Shown here in pieces: positions 18,396 to 35,667 of a DNA stretch of 64,000 nt (the stretch's first letter is position 1; each line of letters starts with the position of its first letter). The notes beneath the pieces were generated by a model, which saw only the letters and a program-made list of their open reading frames with translations, made no database searches and was not told the origin of the DNA. The DNA comes from Candidatus Binatia bacterium (lineage in GTDB: Bacteria > Desulfobacterota > Binatia > UBA9968). The stretch lies in contig JBGPIK010000001.1 in the NCBI GenBank assembly GCA_041484845.1, positions 529 through 64,528 on the forward strand. The letters are read 5' to 3'. Position numbers and translations under genes: made by a program.

Positions 18396-19366
18396 ATTTA
18401 TTACTCATTACGATATTTTCTTTTTTGGCAGCCATGTCTCTTATCGTAATCGTCTTTCTGTTGCCGATGGCCGTGCAGGATACACCGCAGGCCCGCATCC
18501 GTCGACGCCTCACTGCCGTCGGCCGTATGACTTATGCCTCGAGGGCAGACATCCAGAACCTTCTTAAAACATCCGTCTTTAGTGAAGTCCCAGCCGTCAA
18601 TGCCATTCTGACTCGAATACCCATTGTGCAGCAGGTCGACTTGCTCCTCGAGCGCGCCAATGTCGATATGACGCCCGCGCTTTTTTTGCTCTGTTGCGGA
18701 GCTGCGGCGGGGGTGACGATGTTTTTGGCGGGTCTGCTTGACCAAGCTTTTTGGATTATTCTTATCAGCGGCCTCATCGCCCTCTTTTGTCCCTACGTGT
18801 ACTTGAAACTAATCACATGGCGGCGGCTTAGAAAATTTCTCGAGCAGATGCCCGACGGTCTGGACATGATTGGTCAAAGTCTACAAGCCGGTTTGGGGCT
18901 TACCCAAGCCATGGTTTTTGTAGCGAAGGAAATGCCTGATCCTCTAGGAACGGAGTTTGCGGTTTTTATCGAGGAAGTTAATCTTGGTCTTCCGCTTGCT
19001 GATGCTCTCAAGAAATTTGAAACGCGCATGAATTTACCGGAGGTGCGACTTTTTAATACTGCCCTGATGGTCCAGCGAGAAGTGGGCGGGAGTTTAGCCG
19101 AGTTGTTAAACAAGTTGGCGGATATCATCAGAGATAGATTTCGTATCGAGCGGCTTATCAAGAGTTTGACGGCGCAAAACCGGATGAGCGCTTGGACGGT
19201 AAGCGCCATTCCTCCCTTTCTTGCCGTTTTCATGTTCGTCCGCGAGCCGCAAATGATGAGTGAAATGATGGCCAATCCAATGGGCAGAGGGATGCTCGCG
19301 GCGGCGCTGGGATTGGAAGTTCTAGGCATTCTGGTGTTTCGCAAACTTATTAAGATTCATATTTAG
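18392..19366 (+). CDS. tadB: TadB (type II secretion system F family)
   Basis: T2SSF-type membrane protein; ATGA overlap with cpaF. Confidence 0.85.
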
Positions 19367-19376
19367 AGGTTGTCCC

Positions 19377-20306
19377 ATGGAACTACTTATTACCCTTGGG
19401 GTCTTCGGCTTGGTCTCGGGATTAATCTACTTCGTGGTTTCGTCCAGAACTCCGATTTCTGACGAGGCGATACAACGACGGCTCGATAGCATTGGTTCTC
19501 AGGTCACACCGACGCGCCAATTTCGGCTCTACGATACCGAAGAGCTAACGTTCTGGGAACGCGTCACTAACTTTTTCTTTGGCAACAAGGAAATGCCCGC
19601 GCGGTTTAGCCGTATCAGTAGGCGATTGCATCAGGCCGGGTACCGCGGTGCCAGAGCCGTGCGAATTTTTTGGGGCCTGCGGATTTTTCTCGCGGTCGTG
19701 CTCGGCCTCGGCTTGATGTTTGTTGCGATGCTCAGCAAAGCCGCGATGAAGGATTTCCTTATGTTGGGAGGATTGGGAGCTCTAACCGGTTACATGCTTC
19801 CGTTTACAACGGTCTATCGCAAAGCCAAGGCGCGTGTTTTGGAAATGAAAGAGACCCTTCCCGATACGTTAGATTTGCTAGTTGTCTGTGTCGAAGCCGG
19901 AATGGGAGTCGATGCCGCGTTGAATCGCGTTGGTCGGGAGCAGAGTGCGCAGGGGCTCGCTCTCGGTGAAGAGTTGATGTTAGCGAACCAAGAGATGCAG
20001 GCCGGTGCCGTCAGAAAAGAGGCCTTGATTCGGTTGGCTGATCGGGTTGGTCTCGATGAATTTAAAGCACTTGTTACCTTCCTTACGCAAACCGAAGAAC
20101 TTGGCGGAAGCATTGCTCGCTCGCTCAGGGTCTATGCTGAAACCATGCGGGACAAGCGAAGCCAAGCAGCGGAAGAGGCGGCCCGTAAGACGGTTATTAA
20201 GCTTATTTTCCCTCTCGTGTTTTTCATCTTGCCGGCGATTTTTATCTTGATTTTGGGCCCTCCGGGTCTCCAGATCATCAAAGCGTTACAGGATCCCTTG
20301 CATTAG
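19377..20306 (+). CDS. tadC: TadC (type II secretion system F family)
   Basis: Second T2SSF paralogue in the canonical position. Confidence 0.85.
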   Translation: MELLITLGVFGLVSGLIYFVVSSRTPISDEAIQRRLDSIGSQVTPTRQFRLYDTEELTFWERVTNFFFGNKEMPARFSRISRRLHQAGYRGARAVRIFWGLRIFLAVVLGLGLMFVAMLSKAAMKDFLMLGGLGALTGYMLPFTTVYRKAKARVLEMKETLPDTLDLLVVCVEAGMGVDAALNRVGREQSAQGLALGEELMLANQEMQAGAVRKEALIRLADRVGLDEFKALVTFLTQTEELGGSIARSLRVYAETMRDKRSQAAEEAARKTVIKLIFPLVFFILPAIFILILGPPGLQIIKALQDPLH

Positions 20307-20317
20307 AGGTCGTTGCC

Positions 20318-20716
20318 ATGCCCGTGATTAACTTAACGAAGAAGACTTGGCTCGCTACAAAGGTTCGTAAGGCCGATAATTTTATTACTCGTCTTGTGGG
20401 CCTGCTGAAGAGAACTCAGCTAGGACCGGAGGAGGCGCTCTGGCTGATGCCTAGTAAAGGAATTCATACCATCGGTATGAAATTTCCAATCGACGTGATT
20501 TTCCTAAATAAGGAAAACAAGGTCCTTGGAATCAGTTCAGGTATGGCGCCGTACCGAATAAGCTGCGTAAGGCTAAGGGGATATAGTGTTCTCGAGCTGC
20601 CGACGGGCATGATTAGAAAATCCCAGACGGAAATCGGCGATCAGTTGGAAATCTCTTTGGCCGAGTCCTCAGAGATAGATGATTTGAGAGACAGCAGGCT
20701 CAGTCAAGTTGGTTAA
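20318..20716 (+). CDS. DUF192-domain protein
   Basis: MPSKGIHTIGMKFPIDVIFL..VLELP pattern of DUF192/COG1430, frequently the last gene of tad operons. Confidence 0.7.
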   Translation: MPVINLTKKTWLATKVRKADNFITRLVGLLKRTQLGPEEALWLMPSKGIHTIGMKFPIDVIFLNKENKVLGISSGMAPYRISCVRLRGYSVLELPTGMIRKSQTEIGDQLEISLAESSEIDDLRDSRLSQVG

Positions 20717-21148: not shown

Positions 21149-22834
21149 ATGGCGCTAATGGATCAACGGTTCATAAATCGGCTTGGAGCAAAGCTACCAG
21201 CCGCCTCCAAAAGCATAGACTTTTCCTTCGGAAACCGTCATTACATAATTCTGCTTTCGTTTCTCCTTTGTGTAGTCAGCTATTGGGGGTTGCAAAAAGA
21301 TATCATCGGAACTTACCATGACGATGGCATCTATGTCGTAACGGCTAAATCTCTTAGCGAGGGGACCGGTTATCGCATCATAAGCTTGCCGGGCTCACCG
21401 CCTCAGACGAAATATCCTATTCTGTACTCTTATATTCTTTCCTGGGCATGGTCGGTCAGTCCCGTGTTTCCAGGAAATATCGCACTGCTGAAATCGGTCA
21501 ACATCATTTTCTTATTCTTCATTTTTATCACCGCGTATCGGTTTTACTGCACGGCAGTCGCTGAAGGGGAAATCGATGGCTATGTCTACGCCGCCTTAGT
21601 AGGTGCGAATCCGGGTATTTTTTCGTTCGCGGAGTTTGCTGTCAGTGACTTGCTTTTCGCCCTAGTCGTTATTCTGACGTGTTGGCTTTATGGCAGCCGC
21701 GATAGCGCTTGGTTCCAGGGCTGGAAAGCCGGCATCTTGGGTCTAATCTGTGTAATTGCTCTGCTTACTCGTTCTGCGGGAATTCCTTTGGCGGTGGCCG
21801 GCGCAATTCATTTTTTATGGATGCGGCGTTTTCGCGAGCTTGCGATATATGGAATAACCTTGGTTCTCGCTATTATGCCTTGGATCGGATGGCGCGTCGG
21901 TAATGCAGTTTCCGTGTCACCTTCGTCGCTGCTAGCATACTACCTCCAGTACGACGTCCATAACACGGCCTTTTATTTAATGTTCTCCGATCCGATTAAA
22001 AGTGGCGAGATGCTCTGGGCGAATTGCAGGTATCTCCTCGATTCACTGGACATGATTTGGTTGTTGCCCGTTTTTCCCCAACTCAGACTGAAGATGTTCG
22101 TGCTGAGCCTTCTTGCCGTAGGCGCATACTGCTCAATTGGGAAGCACTCGGTTTTTCTAACCGCTTTCTTTGGTTTTTACCTACTGCTTATATTGGGATG
22201 GCCTTTTAGTCCGTTTCGCTACGTCTTGCCTATCATACCGCTGCTCTTGCTCTTTGTCTTCAGGGGCATACATGCTCTAGAAAACACAATTCGGCGAATT
22301 TGGCGCGGGGCTGAGAAATTGCCGCTAAGCGTTTTGGTACGAGTTCCCGCTTATCTAATTGTTTGCCTCAACATAGCCTGGCTCGTTTCTACGGTGCAGC
22401 CGTCGAATGACCGCTGGGTAAGAGGAGCTTTCGGTCAGCGACTCGATTATTCGTGGAGCGGTTTCTTGGAAACTTTCGAATGGATTCGTGCCAATACCCA
22501 TAAGGGAGATGTGCTGGCGACCGCGTACGATCCGATGTACTACCTTTACACGGGCAGAAGAGCAATCATGCCGACCTATCACAAGCCTGAAACTTATTTC
22601 TATCCTTATGCAGGGGCAGATCCTGACGTTGGAGCGGTCGAAGAAATCAAGGGCGAATTTAGGCTCCACGACGTGCGCTACTTAATTACGAATCCGCTCG
22701 ATCAACTTCGAGAAGGGAAGGCCGTTGAAAAAGTCATCGCCGCGCTCCTGGCTTCATATTCTACGCGCCCACAGCTCGCTTTTGTGAGCCGTGACGGACG
22801 ACACAGAGTATACAAAATACGCCAAGCGGGCTAA
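21149..22834 (+). CDS. GT-C-fold (family 39/ArnT-like) membrane glycosyltransferase
   Basis: YHDDGIYVVTAKSLSEGTGY first-loop motif, more than 10 TM segments, soluble C-terminal domain. Confidence 0.65.
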   Translation: MALMDQRFINRLGAKLPAASKSIDFSFGNRHYIILLSFLLCVVSYWGLQKDIIGTYHDDGIYVVTAKSLSEGTGYRIISLPGSPPQTKYPILYSYILSWAWSVSPVFPGNIALLKSVNIIFLFFIFITAYRFYCTAVAEGEIDGYVYAALVGANPGIFSFAEFAVSDLLFALVVILTCWLYGSRDSAWFQGWKAGILGLICVIALLTRSAGIPLAVAGAIHFLWMRRFRELAIYGITLVLAIMPWIGWRVGNAVSVSPSSLLAYYLQYDVHNTAFYLMFSDPIKSGEMLWANCRYLLDSLDMIWLLPVFPQLRLKMFVLSLLAVGAYCSIGKHSVFLTAFFGFYLLLILGWPFSPFRYVLPIIPLLLLFVFRGIHALENTIRRIWRGAEKLPLSVLVRVPAYLIVCLNIAWLVSTVQPSNDRWVRGAFGQRLDYSWSGFLETFEWIRANTHKGDVLATAYDPMYYLYTGRRAIMPTYHKPETYFYPYAGADPDVGAVEEIKGEFRLHDVRYLITNPLDQLREGKAVEKVIAALLASYSTRPQLAFVSRDGRHRVYKIRQAG

Positions 22835-22843
22835 GGTTTTAAG

Positions 22844-23746
22844 ATGATTAAGGCTGCCGTTAACTTGTTGCTTGCAGCGCAGAACCCTGATGGAGGGTGG
22901 GGGTGGACTAAGGAAAGGAATAGCACCACGGAGTGCAGTTCTTTGGCGTTACTTGCGTTGGCTGCCTTGAACGACGATACTCAAGCTATCGCCATTCGCC
23001 GAGGCTTGGATTGGCTAATTCAACGGCAAAATGAGCAGGGAAGCTGGGCGTTAAGCGACTCGTTAGCGGCCCCGTCTTGGGCTACCGCAATCGCCATGCT
23101 CGCATTGAATCCCTGGCCCAAATATCACGCGCAGGTCGTAAGGGCCGGTAAATGGGTTCTAACACAAGAGGGGAAGAAGCCCGGCCTCTTGGCTAATCTG
23201 TTGCTAGCGCTATCTTTTCAAAAGAAACCGGTAATATTAAATGAGGATCTTATCGGCTGGCCGTGGACGCCAGGGACTTTCAGTTGGGTTGAACCGACGA
23301 GCTACTTCCTGATTGCGCTGAAACGAATAAGGCCGTATTTAACCGGCACCAATGTTGATGAGCGAATCAAGCAGGGCGAATCCATGATATACGACCGTAT
23401 GTGTAATGGCGGAGGCTGGAACTATGGTAACTCTGTCGTCTACGGGGAGAAGCTGTGGCCGTACGCGGATATAACCGCCATTGCCTTGATCGCGCTTCAG
23501 AATCACCGTGATGCAATGGAGAACCGCGTCAGCTTTGCTGCTCTGGAAAAGGCGGTGAAACAGGAGAATTCAGGGTTAGCGCGCAGCTGGTCGGCAATTT
23601 GCTACGAGATTTACGGAGAAGATCCCGGTTATTTGCGCAAACTCCTAATGAGTGGGTTTGAAGCAACGGGGTTCTTGGGTGAAACGAAAGCCCTTGCGCT
23701 TTATATTCTAGCGCTTGCAGGTGGAGCAAAGTACTTTCGCATGTGA
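22844..23746 (+). CDS. Prenyltransferase/squalene-oxidase repeat protein (alpha/alpha toroid)
   Basis: Repeated QNPDGGWGW, QNEQGSWAL and NGGGWNYG motifs. No DxDD catalytic motif seen. Confidence 0.75.
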   Translation: MIKAAVNLLLAAQNPDGGWGWTKERNSTTECSSLALLALAALNDDTQAIAIRRGLDWLIQRQNEQGSWALSDSLAAPSWATAIAMLALNPWPKYHAQVVRAGKWVLTQEGKKPGLLANLLLALSFQKKPVILNEDLIGWPWTPGTFSWVEPTSYFLIALKRIRPYLTGTNVDERIKQGESMIYDRMCNGGGWNYGNSVVYGEKLWPYADITAIALIALQNHRDAMENRVSFAALEKAVKQENSGLARSWSAICYEIYGEDPGYLRKLLMSGFEATGFLGETKALALYILALAGGAKYFRM

Positions 23747-23749
23747 AAT

Positions 23750-24748
23750 ATGACGATGAACCGGCGCGAATTTCTAAAAGCAACTGTGGCCGCATCCCTG
23801 TTTCCTCTGTTGGACAGTTGCGGAGGCTCGAATCGCTGGGAGCGCGAAGCCTATCGCAAGGCGCGTACCTCACGTGTAGCTATTGTGGCGGCCGAGAGCT
23901 ATGACGGACCCCTTCAAGACATTGTACTGCGGGGGCTCAAGTTATTTGGGCTTGACGTGAGAGGTAAGATCATCCTGCTTAAGCCTAATTTGGTCGAGTT
24001 CGATCCAAACGGGGTTATCAATACGCATCCTGCCCTAGTTGAGGCGGCGATCACTGCTTTCCGACGTGGCGGGGCTCGCGAGGTCATCGTGGGAGAAGGG
24101 CCGGGTCATCGTCGAGACAATGAATATCTACTTCGGGCCTCCGGTCTTTACTCCGTCATTAAGGAACATGCTATCCGCTATGTCGATCTCAATTCAGACG
24201 ACGTTCAGCCAACAACACTTCGAAGCCACTATACCCGATTCAATCAGCTGTATTTGCCCAAGACGCTGTTTCGCGCGGACCTGGTGGTCTCCATGCCTAA
24301 ACTGAAGACTCATCACTGGGCGGGTGTGACCTTGTCGTTGAAAAATATGTTCGGTGTAATGCCCGGATCCGTTTACGGCTGGCCGAAAAATGCCCTTCAT
24401 TGGGCGGGTATTCACGGCAGTATCTTAGATATAAATAGCTCGCTGCCCAGACCTCAATTCGCGATCATCGACGGCATCGTTGGAATGGAAGGGAACGGGC
24501 CTATTCAAGGCCAAGCAAAAAAAAGCGGCGTGGTGATTTTCAGCAACGATCTGGTTGCTGCCGATGCTACGGCGGCAAGACTTATGAAGATCGAGCCACG
24601 GAAGGTCAAGTATTTAGAAATGGCGGGGGAGTTCCTTGGCAATCTCGCCAATGAGTCAATTGAACAAATAGGGGAGCCACTGGAAAAATTTCAGCAGGAC
24701 TTTCGCGTGATACGAGAGTTTCAAGAACTGAAATCTCTGACGGGCTAA
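23750..24748 (+). CDS. DUF362-domain protein with twin-arginine signal
   Basis: MTMNRREFLKATVAASL (Tat motif), then KPNLV..HPALVEA..VGEGPG and KLKTHHWAGVTLSLKN, typical of DUF362. Confidence 0.7.
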   Translation: MTMNRREFLKATVAASLFPLLDSCGGSNRWEREAYRKARTSRVAIVAAESYDGPLQDIVLRGLKLFGLDVRGKIILLKPNLVEFDPNGVINTHPALVEAAITAFRRGGAREVIVGEGPGHRRDNEYLLRASGLYSVIKEHAIRYVDLNSDDVQPTTLRSHYTRFNQLYLPKTLFRADLVVSMPKLKTHHWAGVTLSLKNMFGVMPGSVYGWPKNALHWAGIHGSILDINSSLPRPQFAIIDGIVGMEGNGPIQGQAKKSGVVIFSNDLVAADATAARLMKIEPRKVKYLEMAGEFLGNLANESIEQIGEPLEKFQQDFRVIREFQELKSLTG

Positions 24749-24767: not shown

Positions 24768-24807
24768 AAAGAGCCGAACGTTTGCCCAACGCCCGGCTCT
24801 TTTTTTG
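24768..24807. terminator. Hairpin plus T-tract between convergent genes
   Basis: AAAGAGCCG..(17-nt loop)..CGGCTCTTT followed by TTTTT. The loop is long, so strength is uncertain. Confidence 0.4.
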
Positions 24808-24827: not shown

Positions 24828-26249
24828 TTAACCGGCTTGGTCGTCCCCGGGAATGATCAGCTTCTGGCCGATGAAAATATAATTGGGATTTTTCAAAGTG
24901 TCGCGGTTAGCCTCGTAGATTTTCTCCCATTTGGAGACCGCATTATAAAACCGCTCAGCTAATTTGCTCAAAGTATCACCGCTTTTTACGACGTACTGTT
25001 GGGTCGCAGGGGCAGCCGTTTTCGCGGCGGGGGCCTGCGCCGATGGTTGCTTATCGGGCGTCGCCGGTACCTGCTTCGCAACCGGCTTTACTTTTTCGTC
25101 TGTTCCCGCCGGCCTAACCTTCGTCTCTACCGTAGGCGTTTTTTCCTTCGCGGCGGCGGGGCTGGAGGCGGACGCGCTTTCGACGCGTGGGGTTGTCTTC
25201 GCTACCGCTGTAGATTTGTACAGCCGGTCGATAAACCCGCTGCTATCAAGTTCTTTTATGAAAGATACGTCCACGAATTGCTCGGGACGAGCTGCACGCG
25301 CACTCGCGTCCTTCGCTCCCATTTCCCGCAGCATGATTTGAATCCCTTTTATCGTGGGGTAGGGCTTTTCCGGTATTAATGCCTGACCAATTGATTCATA
25401 AGCTTCCTGAAGGGCGTCGGGATCATCTGTTTTAAGATATTTTGCCATTATCGCCAGTGCTTCCTTGCGGTGCGTCTTCATGTAGTGAATACCTTCAACA
25501 AAACCTTTAAGGACGTTACGGACCAGTTCGGGCTGAGATTTAATTAGGTTCTGGTTTACGGCCAGTCCGGTGTGCTGGTATTCGAGCCCGAGCATTTGCA
25601 GATCCGCGAGAGTATTAAAGCCCATTTTAGTCGCCTTTGCGGTCAAGGGAATCGCGATCATGACGCCATGAATTTTTCCGGTTTCCAGCGCGCTGAAGCG
25701 GGCAGGCTGACTGCCGATTTGTATGATAGCGACGTCTTTATCGGGGATAAGGCCGTATTTTTCCAGCGCATATCGAGTAGCAAAATCCGACGACGAGCCG
25801 ATTCGGCTGACAGCGACGGCCTTGCCTTTAAGCTGATCGGGGCGAGTAATTTCCCGAGCGACGATAAGTTTATAGTCCATCGTATTCAAGAATCCCGCGA
25901 TCATCACCACGCCCGATCCCTGAAGATTGCTCTGTAGCACCGAGGTGCCCGCAACTTGGGCGGCGACTACGTCTCCCGAAATTAGTGTTTGTACGGTTCT
26001 GCTTCCGCTCTCGATGAAGATCAGTTGAGCGTCCAAACCGTATTTACGGAATATTCCGCTTTCATATGCTACCCATGCTGGCGCCTGACTGGGCGATATG
26101 CCACTGTACGCAATGACAACTTTCTTCAGGGGCTGCGGGGTTCCGGCGTCTGCGGCAAGAGCGGACGATGGAGAGAGCCCGACGACCGTTAACAATGCGA
26201 ATATAACGCGATAAAACCGATAGAAAAGATTTTCAAGGCTGGTATTCAT
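24828..26249 (-). CDS. NMT1/SsuA-TauA-like periplasmic substrate-binding protein fused to a P/A/K-rich linker and a C-terminal LysM domain
   Basis: Signal peptide; SBP core (VIAYSGISPSQAPAWVA..GLDAQLIF..); C-terminal YVVKSGDTLSKLAERFY..YEANRDTLKNPNYIFIGQKLIIPG is LysM. Confidence 0.8.
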   Translation of the reverse strand: MNTSLENLFYRFYRVIFALLTVVGLSPSSALAADAGTPQPLKKVVIAYSGISPSQAPAWVAYESGIFRKYGLDAQLIFIESGSRTVQTLISGDVVAAQVAGTSVLQSNLQGSGVVMIAGFLNTMDYKLIVAREITRPDQLKGKAVAVSRIGSSSDFATRYALEKYGLIPDKDVAIIQIGSQPARFSALETGKIHGVMIAIPLTAKATKMGFNTLADLQMLGLEYQHTGLAVNQNLIKSQPELVRNVLKGFVEGIHYMKTHRKEALAIMAKYLKTDDPDALQEAYESIGQALIPEKPYPTIKGIQIMLREMGAKDASARAARPEQFVDVSFIKELDSSGFIDRLYKSTAVAKTTPRVESASASSPAAAKEKTPTVETKVRPAGTDEKVKPVAKQVPATPDKQPSAQAPAAKTAAPATQQYVVKSGDTLSKLAERFYNAVSKWEKIYEANRDTLKNPNYIFIGQKLIIPGDDQAG

Positions 26250-26273
26250 TGCTGGTCTCCTTTTTATCCGATG

Positions 26274-27059
26274 TTACTCTCGATTTAGACGCAACATAGC
26301 CGCTTTCAGGCTGGCTCTCATTCTTTCGAGTGAACGCGCCAATTCGCCGACCTCATCGTCGCCTTGAACCGAAACGGATGCGTCCAAATTGCCGCGACTA
26401 ATTTCGTCGGCGCTCGATTTTAGCTCCAGTATCGGGCGGATGGTTTTGCCCGCGATGATAACCGAAATAGCTATACCGATCACGAGGCAAAGCGCAATCA
26501 GGCCAATAATGGGGAGGACCGTACCGCGCACGTCTTGCTGAACGGTGTCGGCCCATAACCCGACGTGGACCGCCCCTAACTGGCCGTCGAGAATAGGCGT
26601 TTGGGTTTCATAAACGGGTTTGCCGTGGATCTTTGTGGTGCGCGACGCAGAGGTCCGCTGGTTGCCGAGGTCAGATGAATCCTTCAGCTCCGCCGGAAAA
26701 GGTTGCAGGCTGCCGGCGAGAATTTCGCCTTTGGGGTCTTGGATATAGGCATAAGCGACGCCATCTAATCTCCCGTATTTGGCGATGAGCGCATCCAATT
26801 CAAGCGTGCTCTTTTTTGATACGTATCCAGCGGCGGCATCACTGAGGTTGGTTGCGATCGCGGCCGAGCGCAAGTCGACCTGTCGCTGTAGCGCATTTCC
26901 CGTGAGGATGTAAACGATGCCAATCACGCAAATGCCTAAAACAATCAGCAGGCCGCTAAAGGCGGTCGTGATCTTCCATTTCAACCCTCCGCTTTGAAAT
27001 GGCAAAGTCATGGACTTTGCAACCTTGGAGCTCTGAAAAGATAATGATTCCTGAGGCAT
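26274..27059 (-). CDS. Membrane sensor-like protein: TM, ~140-aa periplasmic domain, TM, HAMP; no output domain
   Basis: HAMP segment RPILELKSSADEISRGNLDASVSVQGDDEVGELARSLERM. The protein ends about 15 aa later. Confidence 0.75.
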   Translation of the reverse strand: MPQESLSFQSSKVAKSMTLPFQSGGLKWKITTAFSGLLIVLGICVIGIVYILTGNALQRQVDLRSAAIATNLSDAAAGYVSKKSTLELDALIAKYGRLDGVAYAYIQDPKGEILAGSLQPFPAELKDSSDLGNQRTSASRTTKIHGKPVYETQTPILDGQLGAVHVGLWADTVQQDVRGTVLPIIGLIALCLVIGIAISVIIAGKTIRPILELKSSADEISRGNLDASVSVQGDDEVGELARSLERMRASLKAAMLRLNRE

Positions 27060-27092
27060 GTCTCCTCCCGGGTAAATTAAAGGTAGATAACG

Positions 27093-27887
27093 TTAGAATT
27101 TCTTGAAATTAGAAATCTCTTGGAACATTGCTTCTTCAAATTTGTTGCGTACTTGATTGTCTGAGATTTCACGACTCATCAAGGCTATGAGTTCGTCCAA
27201 TTTGGCCTCAGGTAAAGTATCTCGCGATTCACCCAGAGCTTCGATTTGATCCCGCAGTACCATCGATGCCATCGGTCCCATCACCTCAGTGAGGATGGAT
27301 GTAAGCCGGTTTAATAGGGCCGGCGGCACGAGTTCACCCGTAGGTTTTGACGCAGGTGAAACGACCTCGACCAGACCTGATTTATGGAGATTGAAAACGA
27401 CTTTTGCGGTATAGGCGTAAGGAATACGCAACAGCTCCGCGATGTCTTGCATGCTGCGAATCCCATCGATCTTGCTGAGCACGCGCCAGCCGACGTGAGG
27501 AACGGTGATCGGACCGGTTTGTTCCTCACCGAGATCGGCAATACGAAAGACGGTCTTCCCTGACGGAACCACTTCGAGAATGCTTTCCCATTCTCGACTC
27601 ATCGCTTTCACTTCTTCGAGAATCTCCGAAGAGGTCTTTTTGATGGTGGGCGAAGGCGGTGCGCCATTCGGCAGCAAGCTGAAGGTTCCTTCTCCCCAAG
27701 TGACTGGATAAAGCAAAGCCTTTTCACCGTCGCCTATGGGGCAGGTCGCATGCACGATGCTACCATCCACGAAATAAACTTCGACGGTTTCCTTGCCGCG
27801 CGCAAGTTTGAGAATGCCACTCTTCTTGCCACCGGTTGCAAGCAGAAGAATATCGTTAAGGCTGATTTGTGCGAGATTTCCTTGCAT
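27093..27887 (-). CDS. DUF4388 (PATAN-type) domain protein
   Basis: MQGNLAQISLNDILLLATGGKKSGILKLARGKETVEVYFVDGSIVHA is the canonical DUF4388 N-terminus. Confidence 0.8.
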   Translation of the reverse strand: MQGNLAQISLNDILLLATGGKKSGILKLARGKETVEVYFVDGSIVHATCPIGDGEKALLYPVTWGEGTFSLLPNGAPPSPTIKKTSSEILEEVKAMSREWESILEVVPSGKTVFRIADLGEEQTGPITVPHVGWRVLSKIDGIRSMQDIAELLRIPYAYTAKVVFNLHKSGLVEVVSPASKPTGELVPPALLNRLTSILTEVMGPMASMVLRDQIEALGESRDTLPEAKLDELIALMSREISDNQVRNKFEEAMFQEISNFKKF

Positions 27888-27915
27888 AGTCTTGACCGGG
27901 TTAACAGATTACCTG

Positions 27916-28242
27916 TTAACGGTCCTCCATCGAACGACGAGAGTTGACTCCCACTGTAGACTTTTTCCCATGCTCGTTGGTATCATCGTGCCCATTCAGG
28001 GTGACTTTGAGCGCCTTGATAACCGCGAGACTTTTGCTGATTCCAACCATCTGATCCATGGTGGATTTAATTTGGCTCTGCAATAAGTCGACCTCTTCGG
28101 CAGATATGGTTTGTAATTGCGTTTGCAGCTCGTCGTAGAGCCGTGTGATGCCGTCGATTTGTCCCAACGACTCCGTTTTTTGGGTGATGCCTTCGTAGAG
28201 TCGAGAGATATCTTCCGTGAGATTTTGCAGTTCGTTTTTCAT
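27916..28242 (-). CDS. Small coiled-coil protein, unknown function
   Basis: ATG at 28242 lies 22 nt after the upstream stop, with AAGGAGAG upstream. The longer ORF-track start at 28365 would overlap the previous gene. Confidence 0.55.
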   Translation of the reverse strand: MKNELQNLTEDISRLYEGITQKTESLGQIDGITRLYDELQTQLQTISAEEVDLLQSQIKSTMDQMVGISKSLAVIKALKVTLNGHDDTNEHGKKSTVGVNSRRSMEDR

Positions 28243-28264
28243 ACCGTTATTCCACCCTCTCTCC

Positions 28265-29611
28265 TTATGGTCTATTTTTGAGTCGAGAATTATTTTCCGT
28301 TTCGTGGAGCGCGCCTTTTTCAGCAACGGTTGCGCCGGGCCGGTTTGCAAGGCTGTCGTGATCACTGGATCCGGCCGAAGTGGAGGGACGGCTCTGAGCC
28401 GGTGTCGAAGTTTGCGAGTTCATGGCTCTCGGCGAGAAATAATAAAAGCCTGAAAAGATGAGAGCGAGGAGTAAAAATGCAGCAATCACGCCGGTTTTGA
28501 GGTTAATCGGGCTTTGGCGTGGATAAAGATCATATTCGCCGTAGTCCTTGATCAGTTTTTTTAATTGCCGATCGAGGTCGCCGTTTGTCTTAGTGCTCGG
28601 AAGATTTTTTCTTTCAAACTCGATCTCGGTCGAGCGCACGGTAGGATCGGCGTAAATTTTGGTGGTGTTCACAGGAGGAGAATCCGGAATTTCGATTGTT
28701 GGGGAGGACTTCCGAGAAGCCGCGAATTCTCCATAGTTCTTTATGAGATCGTCGAGAAGTCTTTGATCAAAGTCCGTGCTCGCGGTTGTAGCAACCGTGT
28801 CCTTGGTCTCTTCCTCGTTTGCCGTGGCTGCTGGAGAAGTGAAGCGCGGGCTTGCTTCCGTATTTGCGTCGCAGCTTCCAGACGCTGCTGAGTCGCAGAT
28901 GTCGATCTGCGGCTCGTCCACCGGCAAAATTTCTGAATCCGGTGTCAGGAGCGGATCGAACGCTGTCGCCGACGACAAATCCGCGACCCGTGAAGCCAAT
29001 TGATCTTCAAGGCCATTTTCTTGCTCTACCACGGTGGCGGTGGTGATCTCGGTTTGAATCGCCGACTGCGAGGTCAAAGCGGGGAGATTGATTGCTTCGA
29101 GGGATTGCGCTGCGTCGCCCTTTTCGCTGTCTTCGGCCACTCTTGGTATTGGCGCATCATTTTCTTGGACCTGCGCGCACGTCCTGATGGATTGGTCCGC
29201 GTCGCCGGCGATTTGAGTGCCTGGAATCTTCGCTGACTTGTTTAAGCGCGGGAATTGGATGAGTTTGTTCGCCTGCATGAATGTTTGAATGGGGGCATGT
29301 TTTTCTACGGCGTCGAGTTTAGCGATCTCAGCACAGTCACTCAAAGGTTGCTCTACAGCATCGCGCACGGCAGCCATAGACGCTTTGATTTCCGTGAACG
29401 TTTCCAGCTTTCCCCGCAGGTCGGATAGGCGTAATAGGAGGGTTTGAGTCTTATCATGGGCGTTACCTACATCATCAGCGCTAAAGTTTTCAAGTCGCTG
29501 CTGGAGGCCCTGAATAGAGTTGACCACCTTACCGAAAGAGCCCAGGTTGGGTAGATCGTCCGGAGAAGTGCCCGCTGCAAGTCGTATCTCTTCTTTTTGT
29601 GCTGATAGCAT
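28265..29611 (-). CDS. Unknown 448-aa protein: N-terminal coiled coil, acidic low-complexity centre, duplicated LIK(N/D)YGE(F/Y) motif, single TM near the C-terminus
   Basis: First gene after the sigma-54 promoter; TM GVIAAFLLLALIFSGFYYF at aa 374-392. Confidence 0.65.
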   Translation of the reverse strand: MLSAQKEEIRLAAGTSPDDLPNLGSFGKVVNSIQGLQQRLENFSADDVGNAHDKTQTLLLRLSDLRGKLETFTEIKASMAAVRDAVEQPLSDCAEIAKLDAVEKHAPIQTFMQANKLIQFPRLNKSAKIPGTQIAGDADQSIRTCAQVQENDAPIPRVAEDSEKGDAAQSLEAINLPALTSQSAIQTEITTATVVEQENGLEDQLASRVADLSSATAFDPLLTPDSEILPVDEPQIDICDSAASGSCDANTEASPRFTSPAATANEEETKDTVATTASTDFDQRLLDDLIKNYGEFAASRKSSPTIEIPDSPPVNTTKIYADPTVRSTEIEFERKNLPSTKTNGDLDRQLKKLIKDYGEYDLYPRQSPINLKTGVIAAFLLLALIFSGFYYFSPRAMNSQTSTPAQSRPSTSAGSSDHDSLANRPGATVAEKGALHETENNSRLKNRP

Positions 29612-29662
29612 GACTGCAAATCCCGTAAAAGCCTAGCGATTTAGCGCACCGTGTTTGTCTAA

Positions 29663-29678
29663 AGCAAAACAGTTGCCA
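29663..29678 (-). promoter_or_regulatory. Sigma-54 (-24/-12) promoter
   Basis: The minus strand reads TGGCAA-ctgtt-TTGCT, with the -12 element about 50 nt upstream of the ATG at 29611. Confidence 0.65.
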
Positions 29679-29718
29679 TCAGTTGTCAGCGGAAAAAATT
29701 CGTCTTTTCAGTAACATA

Positions 29719-29734
29719 AGGACAGTTTTGTCCT
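29719..29734. promoter_or_regulatory. Palindrome AGGACA-N4-TGTCCT upstream of the sigma-54 promoter (candidate enhancer site)
   Basis: Perfect 6+6 inverted repeat 41-56 nt upstream of the -24 element. Confidence 0.35.
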
Positions 29735-29818
29735 AAAAGTGCTAGATTATTCCCACAGTTCTGTTCATCTTGAACAATATTGTACGTGGTTGTGTGCCGC
29801 TAATTTGTTGCTTGACAA

Positions 29819-30622
29819 CTACCGTGGCTCCAAAATGAGGAGCTGCCTCCGCGAATCAATGGAAGTATGAAAACGACTAAGGAAGTCCAGTCCGAGTAAA
29901 CCGCCTAGCGTTGAGTGGGCGGAAATGTCATGAATGGCGACGGTAAGATTTGTCGCCTCGGCAGCGCCTACTTTTATCGAGCCTAGGCGGGCCAAAGCAA
30001 CGTTGATGAGTCCGTTTGCAGTTGAAATGGTAGCGCGCGATGCCTCGTTGAGACTGAGACTCGCGGCAAGTTGACGTGAAACTACGGTATAGCTCGCGCC
30101 CGTATCCAGTAGCATAAAAGCTTGAACTGTGCGGTTGAGCGTTACGGTCACAAAGGCAGCGGAGCCGGTCATATGAATCGGCACTAGAACGGCACTGGAT
30201 GATGTCGAATCCGACGAAACCGAAGGTATTTCAACCGGAAGCGTCGAAGCGCGTCGACTGGGCAAAGATCTAAAAAAGTCCTCCGTCCGTTTCGCGTCGT
30301 CGGAATCTCCGGCTTTGATCCAGCCGACGAGGCCGCTTTGGGTTTTTACCAAGTACCATTTTGAACCCTCGCTGCCAATTGTTTCCGCGACCGGCAATAG
30401 AGCATCATCCGACTTCGGTACTTCGATCTGAGGCGATGACTCATCGGGCGCTGTGAATAGTCGTAGCGCGCGAGTTACTTTGAGTGGCGGACGGGTAGGA
30501 CCGGTTTGTGCAGCGGCAAAAGGTGTAAGTAGCAGGAGCAAAATCAGCACGGCTGAAGTATTTCGCACCGTTTTTACCAAACTGGTTCTTGATCGATGTC
30601 CAGTACGACGGCCGGAAAACAA
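29819..30622 (-). CDS. Secreted retropepsin-like (clan AA) aspartic protease with an SH3-like N-domain
   Basis: Signal peptide; WYLVKTQSGLVGWIKAGD (bacterial SH3-like); LLDTGASYTVVS (DTGA active site) and GLLGLDFL. Confidence 0.75.
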   Translation of the reverse strand: MFSGRRTGHRSRTSLVKTVRNTSAVLILLLLLTPFAAAQTGPTRPPLKVTRALRLFTAPDESSPQIEVPKSDDALLPVAETIGSEGSKWYLVKTQSGLVGWIKAGDSDDAKRTEDFFRSLPSRRASTLPVEIPSVSSDSTSSSAVLVPIHMTGSAAFVTVTLNRTVQAFMLLDTGASYTVVSRQLAASLSLNEASRATISTANGLINVALARLGSIKVGAAEATNLTVAIHDISAHSTLGGLLGLDFLSRFHTSIDSRRQLLILEPR

Positions 30623-30630
30623 AAGCCACG

Positions 30631-31911
30631 CTATAGCGGCAGTGCAAACTTCTCGATTTTGCGATACAGCGTCCGGGTTGATATTCCCAGAGCCTCTGCT
30701 GCCTTGGCCTTGTTGCCATTCGTTTGACGGAGGGCGTCCTCAATAAGCGTTTTTTCGCCCTCTTCGATGTTACGTATTGCTTTTGTGCCGATCTCTTCGC
30801 GACGTCCGGTTGCATACTGCTGCAAATTCATGGGTAAATCACTGATCGTAATATATTCACCATCAGACACCATGACGGAGCTTTCGATCACGCTTCTCAG
30901 TTCCCGAATATTTCCTGGCCAATGGTAGTCTAAGAAAAGCGCCTTGACCGAACTAGTGAGCTTTTTCAGCGGCTTCTGATACTGGTTGCAACAGTGATAC
31001 ACGAAGTTTGCAACCATGAGGATGATATCTTCTCTTCGTTCTCGTAGTGGAGGAAGTATGACTCTGGCACTGTTGAGGCGAAAGTACAGGTCTTTTCTGA
31101 AACCGTTGTTCTGAATGGCATCTTCAAGTTCTTTGTTGGTTGCTGCAATGATTCGAACGTCGCTTATTCGAGGCGATGATTCGCCCACCTTGTAGAACTC
31201 GCGCGTCTCGAGAAAGCGCAAGAGCTTCAACTGGATGGCCGGCGCAAGATCGCCAATTTCGTCGAGGAACAAAGTCCCGCCTTCGGCGGCTTCGATCAGC
31301 CCCTTTTTGTTGCGATCCGCCCCTGTGAAGGCTCCCCTGACGTAACCGAACAGTTCGCTTTCAACCAGGGTTTCGGGAATTGCTGTCATGTTGCATCCAA
31401 CGAAAGGTCTATTTGTCCGAGAGCCTTGCGAATGTATGTACTGGGCCATGATTTCTTTGCCGGTGCCGGTTTCACCCGTGATGAGTACCGTAATGTCGTG
31501 CATGGCGTAACGATTGGCGAGATTCAAAACTTCATGAAACTGGGGCGTCTCGCCGATCATTTGCGGTACATTGAGGGCTACGGCGGTTTTGCCCTCGTCC
31601 GTCGATTGTGCAAAATGGCCGATCAGGGTGTAGAGATTGTGCGCGTGTTCAGCATGGTAACAAACGAGTGAGAGATCGGCAGGATGGTCGCGGACCCGCT
31701 CCATAAATTTTTCCCAGCCGTCGCCACGGCACAGCGCCATGTCCGCAAAGATAACTTTAACCTGATCCAACGGAAAACCCGAAAACACTCGCTCCGCCTC
31801 TTGTACGTTGCGGCTCACATGAACTGAGAAATCCCTCGCCTCCAATATTTTTAAAAGTGAAATAAGTGCGGAGTCGAGTGGCTGGATCAGGAGGGCTAAA
31901 GGTTTTGGCAT
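30631..31911 (-). CDS. Sigma-54-dependent transcriptional activator (receiver-like N-domain, AAA+, Fis-type HTH)
   Basis: GETGTGKE Walker A, GAFTGA loop, LFLDEIG Walker B, C-terminal GNKAKAAEALGISTRTLYRKI. Confidence 0.9.
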   Translation of the reverse strand: MPKPLALLIQPLDSALISLLKILEARDFSVHVSRNVQEAERVFSGFPLDQVKVIFADMALCRGDGWEKFMERVRDHPADLSLVCYHAEHAHNLYTLIGHFAQSTDEGKTAVALNVPQMIGETPQFHEVLNLANRYAMHDITVLITGETGTGKEIMAQYIHSQGSRTNRPFVGCNMTAIPETLVESELFGYVRGAFTGADRNKKGLIEAAEGGTLFLDEIGDLAPAIQLKLLRFLETREFYKVGESSPRISDVRIIAATNKELEDAIQNNGFRKDLYFRLNSARVILPPLRERREDIILMVANFVYHCCNQYQKPLKKLTSSVKALFLDYHWPGNIRELRSVIESSVMVSDGEYITISDLPMNLQQYATGRREEIGTKAIRNIEEGEKTLIEDALRQTNGNKAKAAEALGISTRTLYRKIEKFALPL

Positions 31912-31918
31912 AATCGAT

Positions 31919-33382
31919 TTATTCGTGGGATGGTGGAGCGGGGAGGATCACCATATTTTCCAGCGAATCCGCGAGTAACTCAGGCGTGATGCGACGGGAG
32001 GAGCCAAGATAGTTCGAGGCTGCGATTACGTGTTCGGCGATAAACTTCGGATGGAATCCGGCCAATGGAACCTTGTGCTTTAAATAAAAGGTATTGAGCA
32101 AATGGGCCATCATCTCGGGTGAAAATTCCAATCCATAGGAATCGCAAATTCTGCAGAAAATCTCTTTGTATTCCTCGATCGTGGGCGGGTTAATCTTAAG
32201 CTTGTAATGAACTCGGCGCAGCTGCGCGGGATCCATGAGCTCTTCCGGTGGAAAGTTGGTAGCGAAGATGACCAATTGATCGAACAGAAGGGCGAATTTT
32301 TTTCCCGTGTGAAGGGTGAGGTAATCCACCTTGCGTTCCAGAGGGAAAATCCATCGGTTTAGCAATTCATGAGGGCGCACGCGCTGTCGCCCGAAGTCAT
32401 CGATCACGAATACTCCGCCTGTGGCTTTCAATTGCAGCGGGGCTTCGTAATATTTCGAGTAAGGATCAAAATCCAGGTCCAGCATCTCGAGAGTTAGCTC
32501 ACCCCCCGAAATGATATAAGGCCTTTTGCACCGTATCCAACGCGGGTCGTAGTCCATTTGAGGCAGGAACATCGGATGGGAGTCGCCAGAATCGCCACGG
32601 TTGTCACTGTGAGAAGGCGGGAGCGGTACATGCACCGATGAGTCGTAAATCTTGATGATCTGCCCGTCAGCCGCGATAGCATAGGGAATATAAGTCGGCT
32701 GTTCGAATGCGCTGACCAAAGCCTCAGCGATCGATGTTTTGCCGTTCCCAGCGGCTCCGTAAATCAAAATGGCCCTCCCGGAATTAGCCGCGGGCCCAAG
32801 GCGCCGAACGATCTCGTCCGAGAGCACGAGATGAGACAACGCCTTTCGTAGCTTCTCGATGCTAATGATCTCATTGGTAATTGTCTGCTTTTGAACTTGA
32901 ACTTGGTACATTTCGAGCGGAACAGGAACCGGTCCAATATACTCACAACGTCGTAGCGCTTCGCTCGCCCTTTCTTTGCCGGCATGGGTAAGAGCATAGC
33001 GTAAGATGTTGTAGTTTTTTGCCGACGGACCGCGTATTTCAACCAGCGCTTCTTTTTTTGCAAATGCTAAAAGTTCTTCAATGACGGGCCGAGTAAGCTT
33101 AATCTGCTCAGAGAGCTCCGGAATAGTTTCCAGGGCCGAGATGTACATGGTTCGCAGAAGGCAATTGAGCAGAAAATTAGACTCCAGCCCCGTTTGTTCA
33201 ATAGTTTTGGCAACACGAGGCGGCTCCTGAAGAATCTCATCAAGCCTATCCCGAGTGACGTACCCGAGCGCAACCAGATTATCACCGAGGCGGCCGCCGG
33301 CGATTTTCTGCTGATGGAGCACTTTTTTGAGCTGCTCCTCGTTGATGACATTATTTTCTAGTAAAAGTTTACCGATGGCCAT
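31919..33382 (-). CDS. MshEN (T2SSE_N)-domain protein fused to a MoxR/AAA_5-like AAA+ ATPase
   Basis: The N-terminus carries two tandem 24-aa MshEN-type motifs. Walker A GAAGNGKTS, Walker B VFVIDDFG, LLNRWIFPLE..VIFATNFPP. Confidence 0.75.
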   Translation of the reverse strand: MAIGKLLLENNVINEEQLKKVLHQQKIAGGRLGDNLVALGYVTRDRLDEILQEPPRVAKTIEQTGLESNFLLNCLLRTMYISALETIPELSEQIKLTRPVIEELLAFAKKEALVEIRGPSAKNYNILRYALTHAGKERASEALRRCEYIGPVPVPLEMYQVQVQKQTITNEIISIEKLRKALSHLVLSDEIVRRLGPAANSGRAILIYGAAGNGKTSIAEALVSAFEQPTYIPYAIAADGQIIKIYDSSVHVPLPPSHSDNRGDSGDSHPMFLPQMDYDPRWIRCKRPYIISGGELTLEMLDLDFDPYSKYYEAPLQLKATGGVFVIDDFGRQRVRPHELLNRWIFPLERKVDYLTLHTGKKFALLFDQLVIFATNFPPEELMDPAQLRRVHYKLKINPPTIEEYKEIFCRICDSYGLEFSPEMMAHLLNTFYLKHKVPLAGFHPKFIAEHVIAASNYLGSSRRITPELLADSLENMVILPAPPSHE

Positions 33383-33546
33383 AAAATGATATTTAAGTCA
33401 TGGAAACAACACTGCTTTTGGCGAGGCAAACGATTGTATTCATGGTGTTTTCAGAAAAACTTGCAAAAAACCCTTTCATTATAGGTTATAATCAGCACGT
33501 GTCAAGAAAAGTTTCCTGATGGGTCGTGGCCGAAAGGGATTCGGAA

Positions 33547-35667
33547 ATGAGATTTAGATGTTTGCTGATGAAAGCGGCGATGGCGACACTGTCCTATTTT
33601 GTTATCGGCTGTTCCTTATCGGAGCAAAATGCAAAAAAAACCACTCCAGTCGGGTTTATTACCACCCCGGCTTCGTATTACAGCTCAGCGAAGGCGCGAT
33701 ACCTTGGCGCGAAATATAAGGAAAACTTAGATCGATTGGCCGAACGCATCGTGCGCAATCCTAAAACGGCCAATCTGCAATTCGCCAATAACATTTCCTC
33801 CGTTGGAGGCATCGGTTTTTTTACTCATTCAGCAACGAATACCCCTGATGAACGGTATTTGGAAGTCATTGTTAGCGCGCCTCAAAGTTTTGAAAAGAAG
33901 GAGATTTTCAACACCAAGGTCGCGCGGATTTTTGCCGCATACGGAACAGAGTTGTTGTCTATTCTTGCCGGCGATCCAGCCATTTATCAAGAAAACGAAG
34001 TCAGCGGCTATGGTTTGAATCTGACCTGGAGAAGCCTTGTCCAGGGTTCAACCGGGAGCGGTATCACTCTGGAGGGCGCGGTGATGTATTTTTCGAAAGA
34101 AACAGTTAGAGCCTTCCTACATCAAGACATCGATCAAAACAATTTTCTCACGAGAGCAATCATCTTCGCGGCTGAAGAAAACGGCCCACTGAACTTAATT
34201 TCTTATCGCCAACCGGATCCGGGGCCGGATACGCGGTTACCTATTCACGAGGAACCCCTTAGCGTGCCGCAAATAGACGCTCAAACGGAATCGGGCTCTT
34301 TATCCCAGCCGCGAATTGAAGCAGCAAGAGAGACGGCACCGCCTTTAGCCGTGGCCAACGATGAGCGATTGACGTCAAGCGCTCGTGTCGTTCCGATTAC
34401 CGCAGCAAGGCAACAGTCCGCAGATGGCAAGGGGCAAGAGCAAGTCGCAATTAACAAATCACCACAACCGGCTATTGCCTTCGAAGCCCCGATCGTGCAA
34501 CCGCCGTTGGTCCCGTCAAAGACACAGCCGGCACGGACTGTAGAACCTACGACTACTAAGAGGACGGAAAGTACTTCGGTTACCAAGCGACCCGATGAAC
34601 AATCTGATTTGCATAAAGCCGAACAACAAGCGAATGCATCTCAAGTATCAAAAGCGGATAGATTTCACCAAATAAAACCGTCGAAGGATGAGCGCAAGTC
34701 TGCTTCTGGGGAAATGTCGGCGCCGAAAAACGGCGGGCCTGGCACCGAAATACCGAAAGCGGCGACGACCAACAAAGCTCAGTCGCAAGGCGCCATTGGC
34801 GAACAATTGGCATCCGAGACTTCCAGGGTGGCGGGGAAATCAGGTGACGAAAAGAAAGCAGCCGCATTGTCTAAGACCACATCTGAAGCTCAAGCCTTTC
34901 CCGTGAAAGCAGCGCAACCGGAAGCAAAAAATAAATTTGAGCCATTGACGAGCGAGCAGGTCGCTCTCGCCCGGAAGAATTCGGTTGCCGGCAGTCAAGA
35001 GACGCCGCGCCAAATTGTAAGTGCATTGCCGACGCAAGGGAGCCGAGTGGAAATAGCGAAACCTCTGCCAAATCCGGTCACGAAAAAACCAGCGCGTGAT
35101 GATCCTCAGAACGAAGAAATCGTTGAGGCCGCACCTCTGAGTACTGACGCAGACAAGAGTGCTCGAGGGAAAAACCATGAAGCCGCGGTTGTCGCGAAAT
35201 CAACGGTCAAGGCTCCGAGTCTCGCGCCATTGCCGGCAAAAAGTACGGCTAAGGAAAATTCGCCACCGCTAAGGGCCAAGTTACCCAACGAGCAGATTGG
35301 ACTGCTATTAACTAAGCCCAGTGGGACCGCACCTGAAAAACGAGCTGTCGCACGCTCGCGGCCCAAAGCGTTGGAAGGTTATATTATTCAAGTGGGGTTT
35401 AACAACAAAAACGACGCGCAGCGCTGGGCCGAAACGCTCGAGCGACGCGGCTACGCCGTCTCTGTGACACAGGCGGACGGCGCGGGGTCGGTGCGTTTAC
35501 GATTAGGGAACTTTTCCGTTCGCGACGAAGCCGAGAGACAGCTTAAGTCCCTGAAGCAGGAAGGACTGAGCGGAATCGTCATCAACCTGCCCCAAGCCTA
35601 TCGGCCCGAGGTGCCCGTGCCGGCTTCTGAAGAATCGCAACCGCAATCTGTACGAACTAACAATTGA
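33547..35667 (+). CDS. SPOR-domain lipoprotein with a long low-complexity linker
   Basis: Lipobox YFVIGCS; C-terminal YIIQVGFNNKNDAQRWAETLERRGYAV..RLRLGNF is SPOR. The start is ambiguous (33526, 33547 or 33568). Confidence 0.75.
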   Translation: MRFRCLLMKAAMATLSYFVIGCSLSEQNAKKTTPVGFITTPASYYSSAKARYLGAKYKENLDRLAERIVRNPKTANLQFANNISSVGGIGFFTHSATNTPDERYLEVIVSAPQSFEKKEIFNTKVARIFAAYGTELLSILAGDPAIYQENEVSGYGLNLTWRSLVQGSTGSGITLEGAVMYFSKETVRAFLHQDIDQNNFLTRAIIFAAEENGPLNLISYRQPDPGPDTRLPIHEEPLSVPQIDAQTESGSLSQPRIEAARETAPPLAVANDERLTSSARVVPITAARQQSADGKGQEQVAINKSPQPAIAFEAPIVQPPLVPSKTQPARTVEPTTTKRTESTSVTKRPDEQSDLHKAEQQANASQVSKADRFHQIKPSKDERKSASGEMSAPKNGGPGTEIPKAATTNKAQSQGAIGEQLASETSRVAGKSGDEKKAAALSKTTSEAQAFPVKAAQPEAKNKFEPLTSEQVALARKNSVAGSQETPRQIVSALPTQGSRVEIAKPLPNPVTKKPARDDPQNEEIVEAAPLSTDADKSARGKNHEAAVVAKSTVKAPSLAPLPAKSTAKENSPPLRAKLPNEQIGLLLTKPSGTAPEKRAVARSRPKALEGYIIQVGFNNKNDAQRWAETLERRGYAVSVTQADGAGSVRLRLGNFSVRDEAERQLKSLKQEGLSGIVINLPQAYRPEVPVPASEESQPQSVRTNN

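Follow-up and report, generated by a model that had tools for sequence, protein, structure and literature searches.

A 64,000-nucleotide stretch of a Candidatus Binatia genome (GenBank assembly GCA_041484845.1, contig JBGPIK010000001.1), referred to here as the window, carries a block of eight minus-strand genes. They encode an AAA+ ATPase with an MshEN-like N-domain, a sigma-54 enhancer-binding protein (the activator), a secreted retropepsin-like protease, a 448-residue membrane protein, a 108-residue helical protein, a PATAN-domain adaptor, an sCache-HAMP membrane sensor and a solute-binding protein fused to LysM. A first-pass annotation made from the sequence alone had described this block as a self-contained sigma-54 module with an envelope-associated output. 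Comparison with related loci points instead to the regulatory and sensory arm of the Tad (Flp) adhesion-pilus super-locus of Binatia, a reading whose chances are put at about even; the individual mechanistic links discussed below are held with lower confidence than this general statement. The Tad module would plausibly respond to cyclic di-GMP (c-di-GMP), and the five genes first taken for outputs look, from their predicted domains, like sensors and adaptors rather than effectors. The locus thereby suggests what eight conserved genes of Binatota, an abundant, uncultured soil phylum, are likely to do.

Gene calls in the window are based on six-frame open reading frames and domain scans, which placed all eight genes where they had been annotated and with essentially the domains described. 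The gaps separating the ATPase, activator and protease genes are 7 and 8 nucleotides (nt) as reported, and those within the five-gene operon are 22-33 nt; the promoter gap between the two groups, given earlier as 196 nt, measures 207 nt. Because a sigma-70 promoter precedes the ATPase gene and a sigma-54 promoter with an upstream palindrome precedes the five genes, the block appears to be built as a constitutive-looking ATPase-activator-protease operon followed by an activator-dependent five-gene operon. Ahead of the ATPase gene the hexamers of CTTGAC-N17-TATAAT are invariant in five loci. Rfam and tRNA scans of the window returned only two tRNA-Ser genes, which are unrelated to the block.

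The sigma-54 promoter that had been predicted ahead of the five genes is borne out by its conservation. TGGCAACTGTTTTGCT possesses the GG of a -24 element and the GC of a -12 element at canonical spacing, and an exact TGGCA-N6-TTGC is found ahead of the 448-residue protein gene in all 22 loci whose promoter region could be extracted, far beyond chance. A palindrome, GTACA-N4-TGTTC-N5-GAACA, accompanies it in 20 of these 22 loci and begins 106-107 nt upstream of the -24 element (97 nt in one locus), a position that fits the range of activator sites at about 80-150 bp from the promoter. Its half-sites are kept across loci while the spacer varies, the signature of a protein-binding palindrome. 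Since both the promoter and the palindrome are conserved, the adjacent activator is the likely driver of the five-gene operon. The second inverted repeat between them, GGACAAAACTGTCC, is a possible site for a DNA-bending protein or for a second activator. Further exact copies of TGGCA-N6-TTGC occur at 51774-51788 (+), 55549-55563 (-) and 60663-60677 (+); with those at 7795 and 29664, this amounts to five in 64 kb compared to about 0.5 expected from base frequencies.

Gene neighbourhoods were compared in 80 loci from species-representative genomes, together with metagenome contigs fetched for close homologues of the ATPase (L001-L004). Gene order proved to be conserved in Binatia: GatB, the SPOR gene, the ATPase, the activator, the protease where present, and then the 448-residue, 108-residue, PATAN, HAMP and SBP-LysM genes follow one another in every Binatia-type locus with enough sequence, even where the 448-residue protein has drifted to about 30% identity. 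Among the loci surveyed, the other seven genes accompany the ATPase only in Binatia-type loci (L001-L005). The earlier proposal that the regulators and their target operon form one module therefore stands insofar as the two units travel together. Its claim of self-containment does not, because the block is convergent with a complete Tad locus, the ATPase-activator pair can occur by itself beside Tad genes, and ATPase homologues are found in tad operons or standing alone; the protease gene, moreover, is missing in some lineages.

The association with Tad genes takes several forms. In the window, three genes at the distal end of the Tad operon (561 residues, 300 residues and DUF362) end 80 nt from the convergent SBP-LysM gene, and the same tail-to-tail layout of block and Tad locus is seen in L086, L087, L097, L102, L106, L125, L131, L135, L149, L150, L168 and L169. 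Linkage to a flp-tadV-rcpC-rcpA-tadZABC gene set is also seen in L085, where the ATPase (53% identity) and activator (58%) abut DUF192-tadC-tadB-tadA-tadZ-secretin with none of the other six block genes beside them. In Vicinamibacteria and Gemmatimonadota (L043, L064, L070, L079, L082) the ATPase alone is linked: its homologue, which has no MshEN domain, directly follows tadC/DUF192 on the same strand. The ATPase reading frame of L043 overlaps tadC by 4 nt, and no activator is paired with it.

The ATPase belongs to a large, uncharacterised family of 3,350 clusters at 50% identity (E <= 1e-3). The core conserved throughout the family spans residues ~55-480 and the MshEN domain is present only in a subset; in a rough neighbour-joining tree, Tad-linked members fall in at least three clades. 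Homologues at 80-95% identity span at least 120 clusters, the named ones being mostly Candidatus Binatia. Residues 3-53 of the window protein match the MshE-related c-di-GMP domain of NCBIfam (NF053729) with 58.9 bits against a cutoff of 38, and the family profile matches the N-domains of PilF, MshE and PilB in the PDB (E 4e-20). The MshEN (GSPII) domains of these three proteins are c-di-GMP receptors of pilus ATPases (PMC5013675, PMC11731258). A relaxed motif in two tandem 24-residue copies, [RKPN]hGxxhhxx[GAS]hhxxxxhxxxhxx[QNKRYWST], has been published for them (PMC5013675); the window ATPase satisfies 9 of 11 and 10 of 11 specified positions, and some members of the family match fully. With MshE, PilB and PilF the window ATPase shares a homologous N-domain and a pilus context. 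The part joined to its MshEN domain is a winged helix with an AAA+ ring ATPase, not a secretion ATPase of the PilB type.

The remainder of the protein carries AAA+ Walker A and B motifs and matched no Pfam family above threshold. An AlphaFold2 model is confident (pLDDT 88.5) and finds its best fold match in 8p49, an uncharacterised hexameric archaeal AAA+ protein (E 4e-13), followed by the ATPase domain of archaeal LonB, BchI, NtrX/NtrC1 and RuvB. The 8p49 protein, Q8U0N8 of Pyrococcus furiosus, forms a hexameric AAA+ ring, has a flexible N-domain and, like the window protein, lacks a Pfam assignment (bioRxiv 10.1101/2023.06.09.544317), but at an identity of only 15-16% and being itself uncharacterised it permits no functional transfer. 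Elsewhere in the family, a Desulfuromonas metagenome-assembled genome carries two tandem paralogues of the MshEN-AAA+ ATPase (L029, 10001-12889). In Anaerolineae (L050, L052, L058, L060, L071, L080, L081, L083 and others) a homologue lacking MshEN is flanked by genes for a GT2 glycosyltransferase, a glycerophosphodiester phosphodiesterase, a GH3 hydrolase, a Ser/Thr kinase and an FHA winged-helix protein, a conserved gene order that looks like lineage synteny.

The activator matches Sigma54_activat (3e-65), AAA_lid_14 and HTH_8, and its translation contains GAFTGA. Its N-domain had been called receiver-like, and a weak similarity to Response_reg does exist. A functional receiver is another matter: the score is 14 bits only and the putative acceptor Asp is replaced by Gln in one orthologue, so that the domain is best described as a pseudo-receiver. 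No kinase is paired with the activator. In the protease, the signal peptide and the retropepsin domains (1e-16) agree with the first description, while the SH3-like domain does not hold up at the family cutoff (SH3_3, 19 bits). Its gene is absent between the activator and 448-residue homologues in L150, L155 and L157, where only about 430-450 non-coding nt, with the sigma-54 promoter in them, remain; judged by gene content, the protease is a dispensable member of the block in some lineages.

Homologues of the five-gene operon were, among the matches listed (the closest 80-120), all from Binatia. The 448-residue product begins at its N-terminus with a conserved region of helices, continues with a variable disordered linker and two repeats, and ends with one transmembrane (TM) helix and an unconserved periplasmic tail of about 60 residues. 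The repeats, of a LIKxYGE type, are conserved as F[DN]xRLLxDLIxxYGEF and LDRxLKxxxKDYGE. In the PATAN protein the N-terminal DUF4388 domain scores 53.2 bits against a cutoff of 25; domain scans found no Response_reg match at the C-terminus, which carries DUF8082 instead, so this is not a PatA-type regulator. An exact-sequence look-up of the protein returned no match. The sensor had been labelled HAMP-only and in fact also has a periplasmic sCache_3_2 domain (1e-11); it ends 9 residues past HAMP, without a kinase, methyl-accepting chemotaxis protein or other output domain.

A clue to how such a sensor might be read out comes from the sole more distant version of the operon that was found, a paralogous Binatia cassette in L167 (7879-11296). 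There, a GspA/ExeA-like AAA_22 ATPase ending in DUF8082 is followed by sCache-HAMP and then SBP-LysM. The two DUF8082 domains are 48% identical over 77 residues and C-terminal in both proteins. Because DUF8082 recurs directly upstream of sCache-HAMP and SBP-LysM in this triad, it is likely to be the cytoplasmic partner of the output-less HAMP sensor, with an exchangeable partner domain at its N-terminus. The neighbour of the L167 cassette is a gene for an adenylate/guanylate cyclase, and no pilus genes occur within some 8 kb of it.

The Tad locus itself is preceded by a sigma-54-type promoter. TGGCA[CT]-N5-[CT]CTGCT lies 66-149 nt before the ATG of flp in five of five flp loci and across three diverged intergenic sequences (the window, and L086, L087, L168 and L169 at 2940, 2937, 2947 and 2933, respectively). 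In L086, L087 and L169, each about 21 kb long, the sigma-54 motif occurs only twice, upstream of flp and upstream of the 448-residue homologue. This suggests that expression of the Tad pilin, a G/xxxxEY pilin by its sequence, may be sigma-54-dependent in Binatia. No such motif precedes flp in L043 (Vicinamibacterales), the sole tad-embedded locus with recognisable flp reading frames; in L064, L070, L079 and L082 no flp reading frame was found. A palindrome-like site at 12341-12354 was considered as a second activator site and rejected: it is not counted as evidence because its position is downstream of the putative flp promoter and L086 and L087 lack it. A 13-nt inverted repeat, CATCCAAGTCACG / CGCGACTTGGATG (12187-12218), is located 35-66 nt upstream of the flp motif and is unlike the palindrome of the five-gene operon.

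Genes for the synthesis of c-di-GMP and, in the form of an EAL phosphodiesterase, for its breakdown lie nearby. A histidine kinase and a response regulator-GGDEF (RR-GGDEF) diguanylate cyclase are divergent from flp, a pair also found in L086, L087, L168 and L169. Further out, a GGDEF-EAL gene has its own exact sigma-54 motif; no palindrome matching the block site was seen upstream of it. At the other end, the trio downstream of the Tad genes is conserved in Binatia as the final part of the Tad operon, preceded in relatives by tadE/tadE/tadG/DsbA. The 300-residue member is alpha-alpha-toroid-like, with weak squalene-hopene-cyclase/prenyltransferase-like repeats. Where L168 (11391-14624) carries tadE, tadE, tadG and DsbA between DUF192 and the 561-residue gene, the window has only a 430-nt gap (20717-21148), so its minor-pilin genes lie elsewhere or have been lost. 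The features of the locus are collected in Table 1.

Table 1. Features of the eight-gene block and of the neighbouring Tad/Flp region, in window coordinates
Feature	Position	Strand	Remarks
GGDEF-EAL gene with exact sigma-54 motif	6324..7809	-	gene 6324-7688; motif TGGCATGGCACTTGCT at 7794-7809, 105 nt upstream
Histidine kinase and RR-GGDEF diguanylate cyclase	9753..11914	-	divergent from flp; RR-GGDEF 10958-11914
Putative sigma-54-type promoter upstream of flp	12253..12268	+	TGGCACGGAATCTGCT
Tad/Flp locus	12418..20716	+	flp, TadV peptidase, RcpC/CpaB, secretin, TadZ, TadA, TadB, TadC, DUF192
Genes for 561-aa, 300-aa and DUF362 proteins	21149..24748	+	561-aa protein without family match; continue Tad operon in relatives
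Terminator-like hairpin after last gene of block	24773..24790	-	consensus scan only
NMT1/SsuA-type solute-binding protein (SBP)-LysM	24828..26249	-	secreted; low-complexity linker, C-terminal LysM
Membrane sensor	26274..27059	-	TM, periplasmic sCache_3_2, TM, HAMP
PATAN (DUF4388) adaptor	27093..27887	-	weak winged-helix segment; C-terminal DUF8082
108-aa helical protein	27916..28242	-	63-88% identical among relatives, in which the gene encodes 106-108 aa
448-aa bitopic scaffold	28265..29611	-	no family match
Sigma-54 promoter	29663..29678	-	TGGCAACTGTTTTGCT; 52 nt ahead of ATG of 448-aa gene
Second inverted repeat	29720..29733	-	GGACAAAACTGTCC; between upstream site and promoter; conserved only in closest relatives
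Probable activator binding site (predicted)	29761..29785	-	GTACAATATTGTTCAAGATGAACAG; palindrome
Retropepsin-like aspartyl protease, 267 aa	29819..30622	-	secreted; TTG start; weak SH3-like domain
Sigma-54 enhancer-binding protein, 426 aa	30631..31911	-	degenerate pseudo-receiver, GAFTGA AAA+ core, Fis-type helix-turn-helix
AAA+ ATPase, 487 aa	31919..33382	-	MshEN-like N-domain, winged helix, AAA+; member of large uncharacterised family
Sigma-70 promoter of ATPase-activator-protease operon	33478..33505	-	TTGACA-16-TATAAT, 12/12 match
SPOR-domain lipoprotein	33526..35667	+	divergent from block; syntenic in Binatia; absent beside L085 pair

From these pieces, a regulatory circuit can be proposed. 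As its receiver is degenerate and it has no paired kinase, the activator would probably be under the control of protein contact. The likeliest partner is the ATPase, whose gene lies 7 nt upstream and whose MshEN-like domain could bind c-di-GMP from the neighbouring RR-GGDEF protein. Gating by c-di-GMP, raised in the first-pass annotation, is thus plausible, given the homology of the N-domain to MshEN and the presence of the RR-GGDEF and GGDEF-EAL genes in the neighbourhood. Once active, the activator would bind the palindrome and switch on the five-gene operon, and perhaps flp too. In the envelope, the peptidoglycan-tethered SBP-LysM protein would pass a periplasmic signal to the sCache-HAMP sensor, which in turn would signal to DUF8082 on the PATAN adaptor. 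Together with the 448- and 108-residue scaffolds, PATAN could then act on either the Tad motor or the MshEN domain, by analogy to the two-hybrid finding that PATAN binds PilB1's N-terminal half and PilC's N-domain; PATAN-GspE_N fusions also exist (bioRxiv 10.1101/2021.06.11.447907).

A broader proposition can be entertained only tentatively and is, on balance, doubtful: that the winged-helix AAA+ family is an unrecognised Tad accessory whose MshEN subfamily would give TadA a c-di-GMP input in trans, with transcriptional control through the kinase-less activator added in Binatia. Literature searches found no AAA+ component in the characterised Tad machine. To our knowledge, the Tad motor ATPase has no known c-di-GMP-binding domain.

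Several observations weigh against assigning the block to the Tad pilus. In the loci surveyed, most MshEN-type homologues (in Acidobacteriota and Alphaproteobacteria) have neither Tad genes nor other conserved neighbours, and within a single class synteny may in part be a product of common descent rather than of function. The palindrome-like site near flp, which might have tied the activator to that gene, was rejected as described above. Even against the relaxed motif, the MshEN copies of the window ATPase mismatch at positions 1 and 10 of motif I and position 24 of motif II. Lastly, in L003 the sequence beyond the block, roughly 3 kb, contains no Tad genes. This locus also suits the view that the block is a free-standing sigma-54 module acting on the envelope or peptidoglycan, independent of the pilus and adjacent to Tad genes merely through inherited synteny. 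Such a view, unlikely overall, draws further on the conservation of the block as a unit while the genes on its downstream side vary, and on the LysM domain and the divergent SPOR gene conserved in Binatia. What it fails to accommodate is the recurrence of the ATPase-tad linkage across phyla and in L085, from which SPOR is absent, as well as the published links of both PATAN and MshEN to pilus motors. Nor does the block encode a peptidoglycan-acting enzyme, and the peptidoglycan-associated output inferred earlier over-reads two anchoring domains.

The block has also to be considered as a solute-sensing circuit, in which the ligand of the solute-binding protein and sCache would be an organic sulfonate, nitrate or a pyrimidine-like compound, and the activator would control its own sensor operon along with unlinked uptake genes. 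In its favour are the NMT1, NMT1_2 and SsuA-family matches and the position of the paralogous triad, whose sensor pair of the same kind is found away from pilus genes and near transporters and a cyclase. However, ABC permease or ATPase genes are found neither in nor beside the block, the SBP-LysM fusion fits a tethered sensor better than a transport shuttle, and the ATPase-tad linkage is left unexplained, making this a distinctly improbable account.

A PodJ/PerP-like arrangement for polarity or pilus placement, in which the 448-residue protein recruits TadZ and is trimmed by the retropepsin, is suggested by published features of two proteins. PodJ of Caulobacter is a scaffold with coiled-coil, disordered and TM regions that recruits CpaE for a Tad-type pilus (PMC9684454), and PerP has been cited as a retroviral-type aspartic protease (PMC4140852). 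The 448-residue protein shares the coiled-coil, disordered, single-TM architecture, its gene adjoins that of a periplasmic protease of retropepsin type, and the link is again to a Tad-type pilus. The resemblance is nonetheless one of architecture only: domain and family scans of the 448-residue protein found no sequence similarity, its tail in the periplasm is short and not conserved, peptidoglycan binding falls to a different protein, and L150, L155 and L157 have no protease gene. Regulated proteolysis of this kind is hence improbable to a still greater degree. An anti-phage role as an IetA-like ATPase with a protease can be set aside almost entirely, because the PADLOC/NCBIfam matches to IetA/IteA and to a candidate-system aspartyl protease are weak and local (30-60 residues, <=36 bits) and the chromosomal context is stable, fixed beside gatCAB across many lineages without mobile-element genes; an ATPase 80-95% identical over so many clusters is, in addition, unlike fast-evolving defence genes. 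The IetAS system proper, which comprises full-length IetA and the serine protease IetS, was rejected since the matches are local and the protease here is aspartic.

Taken together, assignment to the Tad pilus seems the best of these readings. All domain families of the block have been described or catalogued before, and control of pili by sigma-54 and by c-di-GMP is a well-established theme. Regulation of the Tad pilus is poorly known outside a few model species, and the locus offers a concrete, testable set of candidate regulators. Among them are an AAA+ family found repeatedly in the tad operons of three phyla and a kinase-less sigma-54 activator with a defined predicted binding site. The recurring SBP-LysM/sCache-HAMP/DUF8082 cassette further hints at the way in which HAMP sensors without an output domain relay signals to separate adaptors in the cytoplasm.

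The statement that no described system has this composition is upheld by literature searches, in which none was found, though several known systems share parts of it. PatA-type PATAN regulators of cyanobacteria have the PATAN domain in common with the block, and according to published work their output consists in binding the pilus extension motor and the platform (bioRxiv 10.1101/2021.06.11.447907). The block protein differs in lacking a receiver, in its C-terminal DUF8082 and in being encoded beside an output-less sCache-HAMP sensor; the pilus here is of the Tad type, and TadA is without the N-domain that PATAN binds in PilB1. PilS-PilR provides the familiar case of a sigma-54 activator encoded beside type IVa pilus genes, the pilin gene being transcribed from a -24/-12 promoter. 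The Binatia locus resembles it in both respects, but the pilus is of the Tad/Flp type, and the activator has a pseudo-receiver without a paired kinase and would be coupled to an MshEN-AAA+ ATPase; the target indicated by conservation is, moreover, a sensory operon rather than the pilin gene. A comparable regulatory logic is that of FleQ-FleN of Pseudomonas, where c-di-GMP and a partner ATPase modulate a sigma-54 activator that lacks functional phosphorylation and controls surface-behaviour genes. In Binatia, the partner would be an AAA+ protein with MshEN rather than a MinD/ParA-type ATPase, and the c-di-GMP site would sit on this partner instead of on the activator itself.

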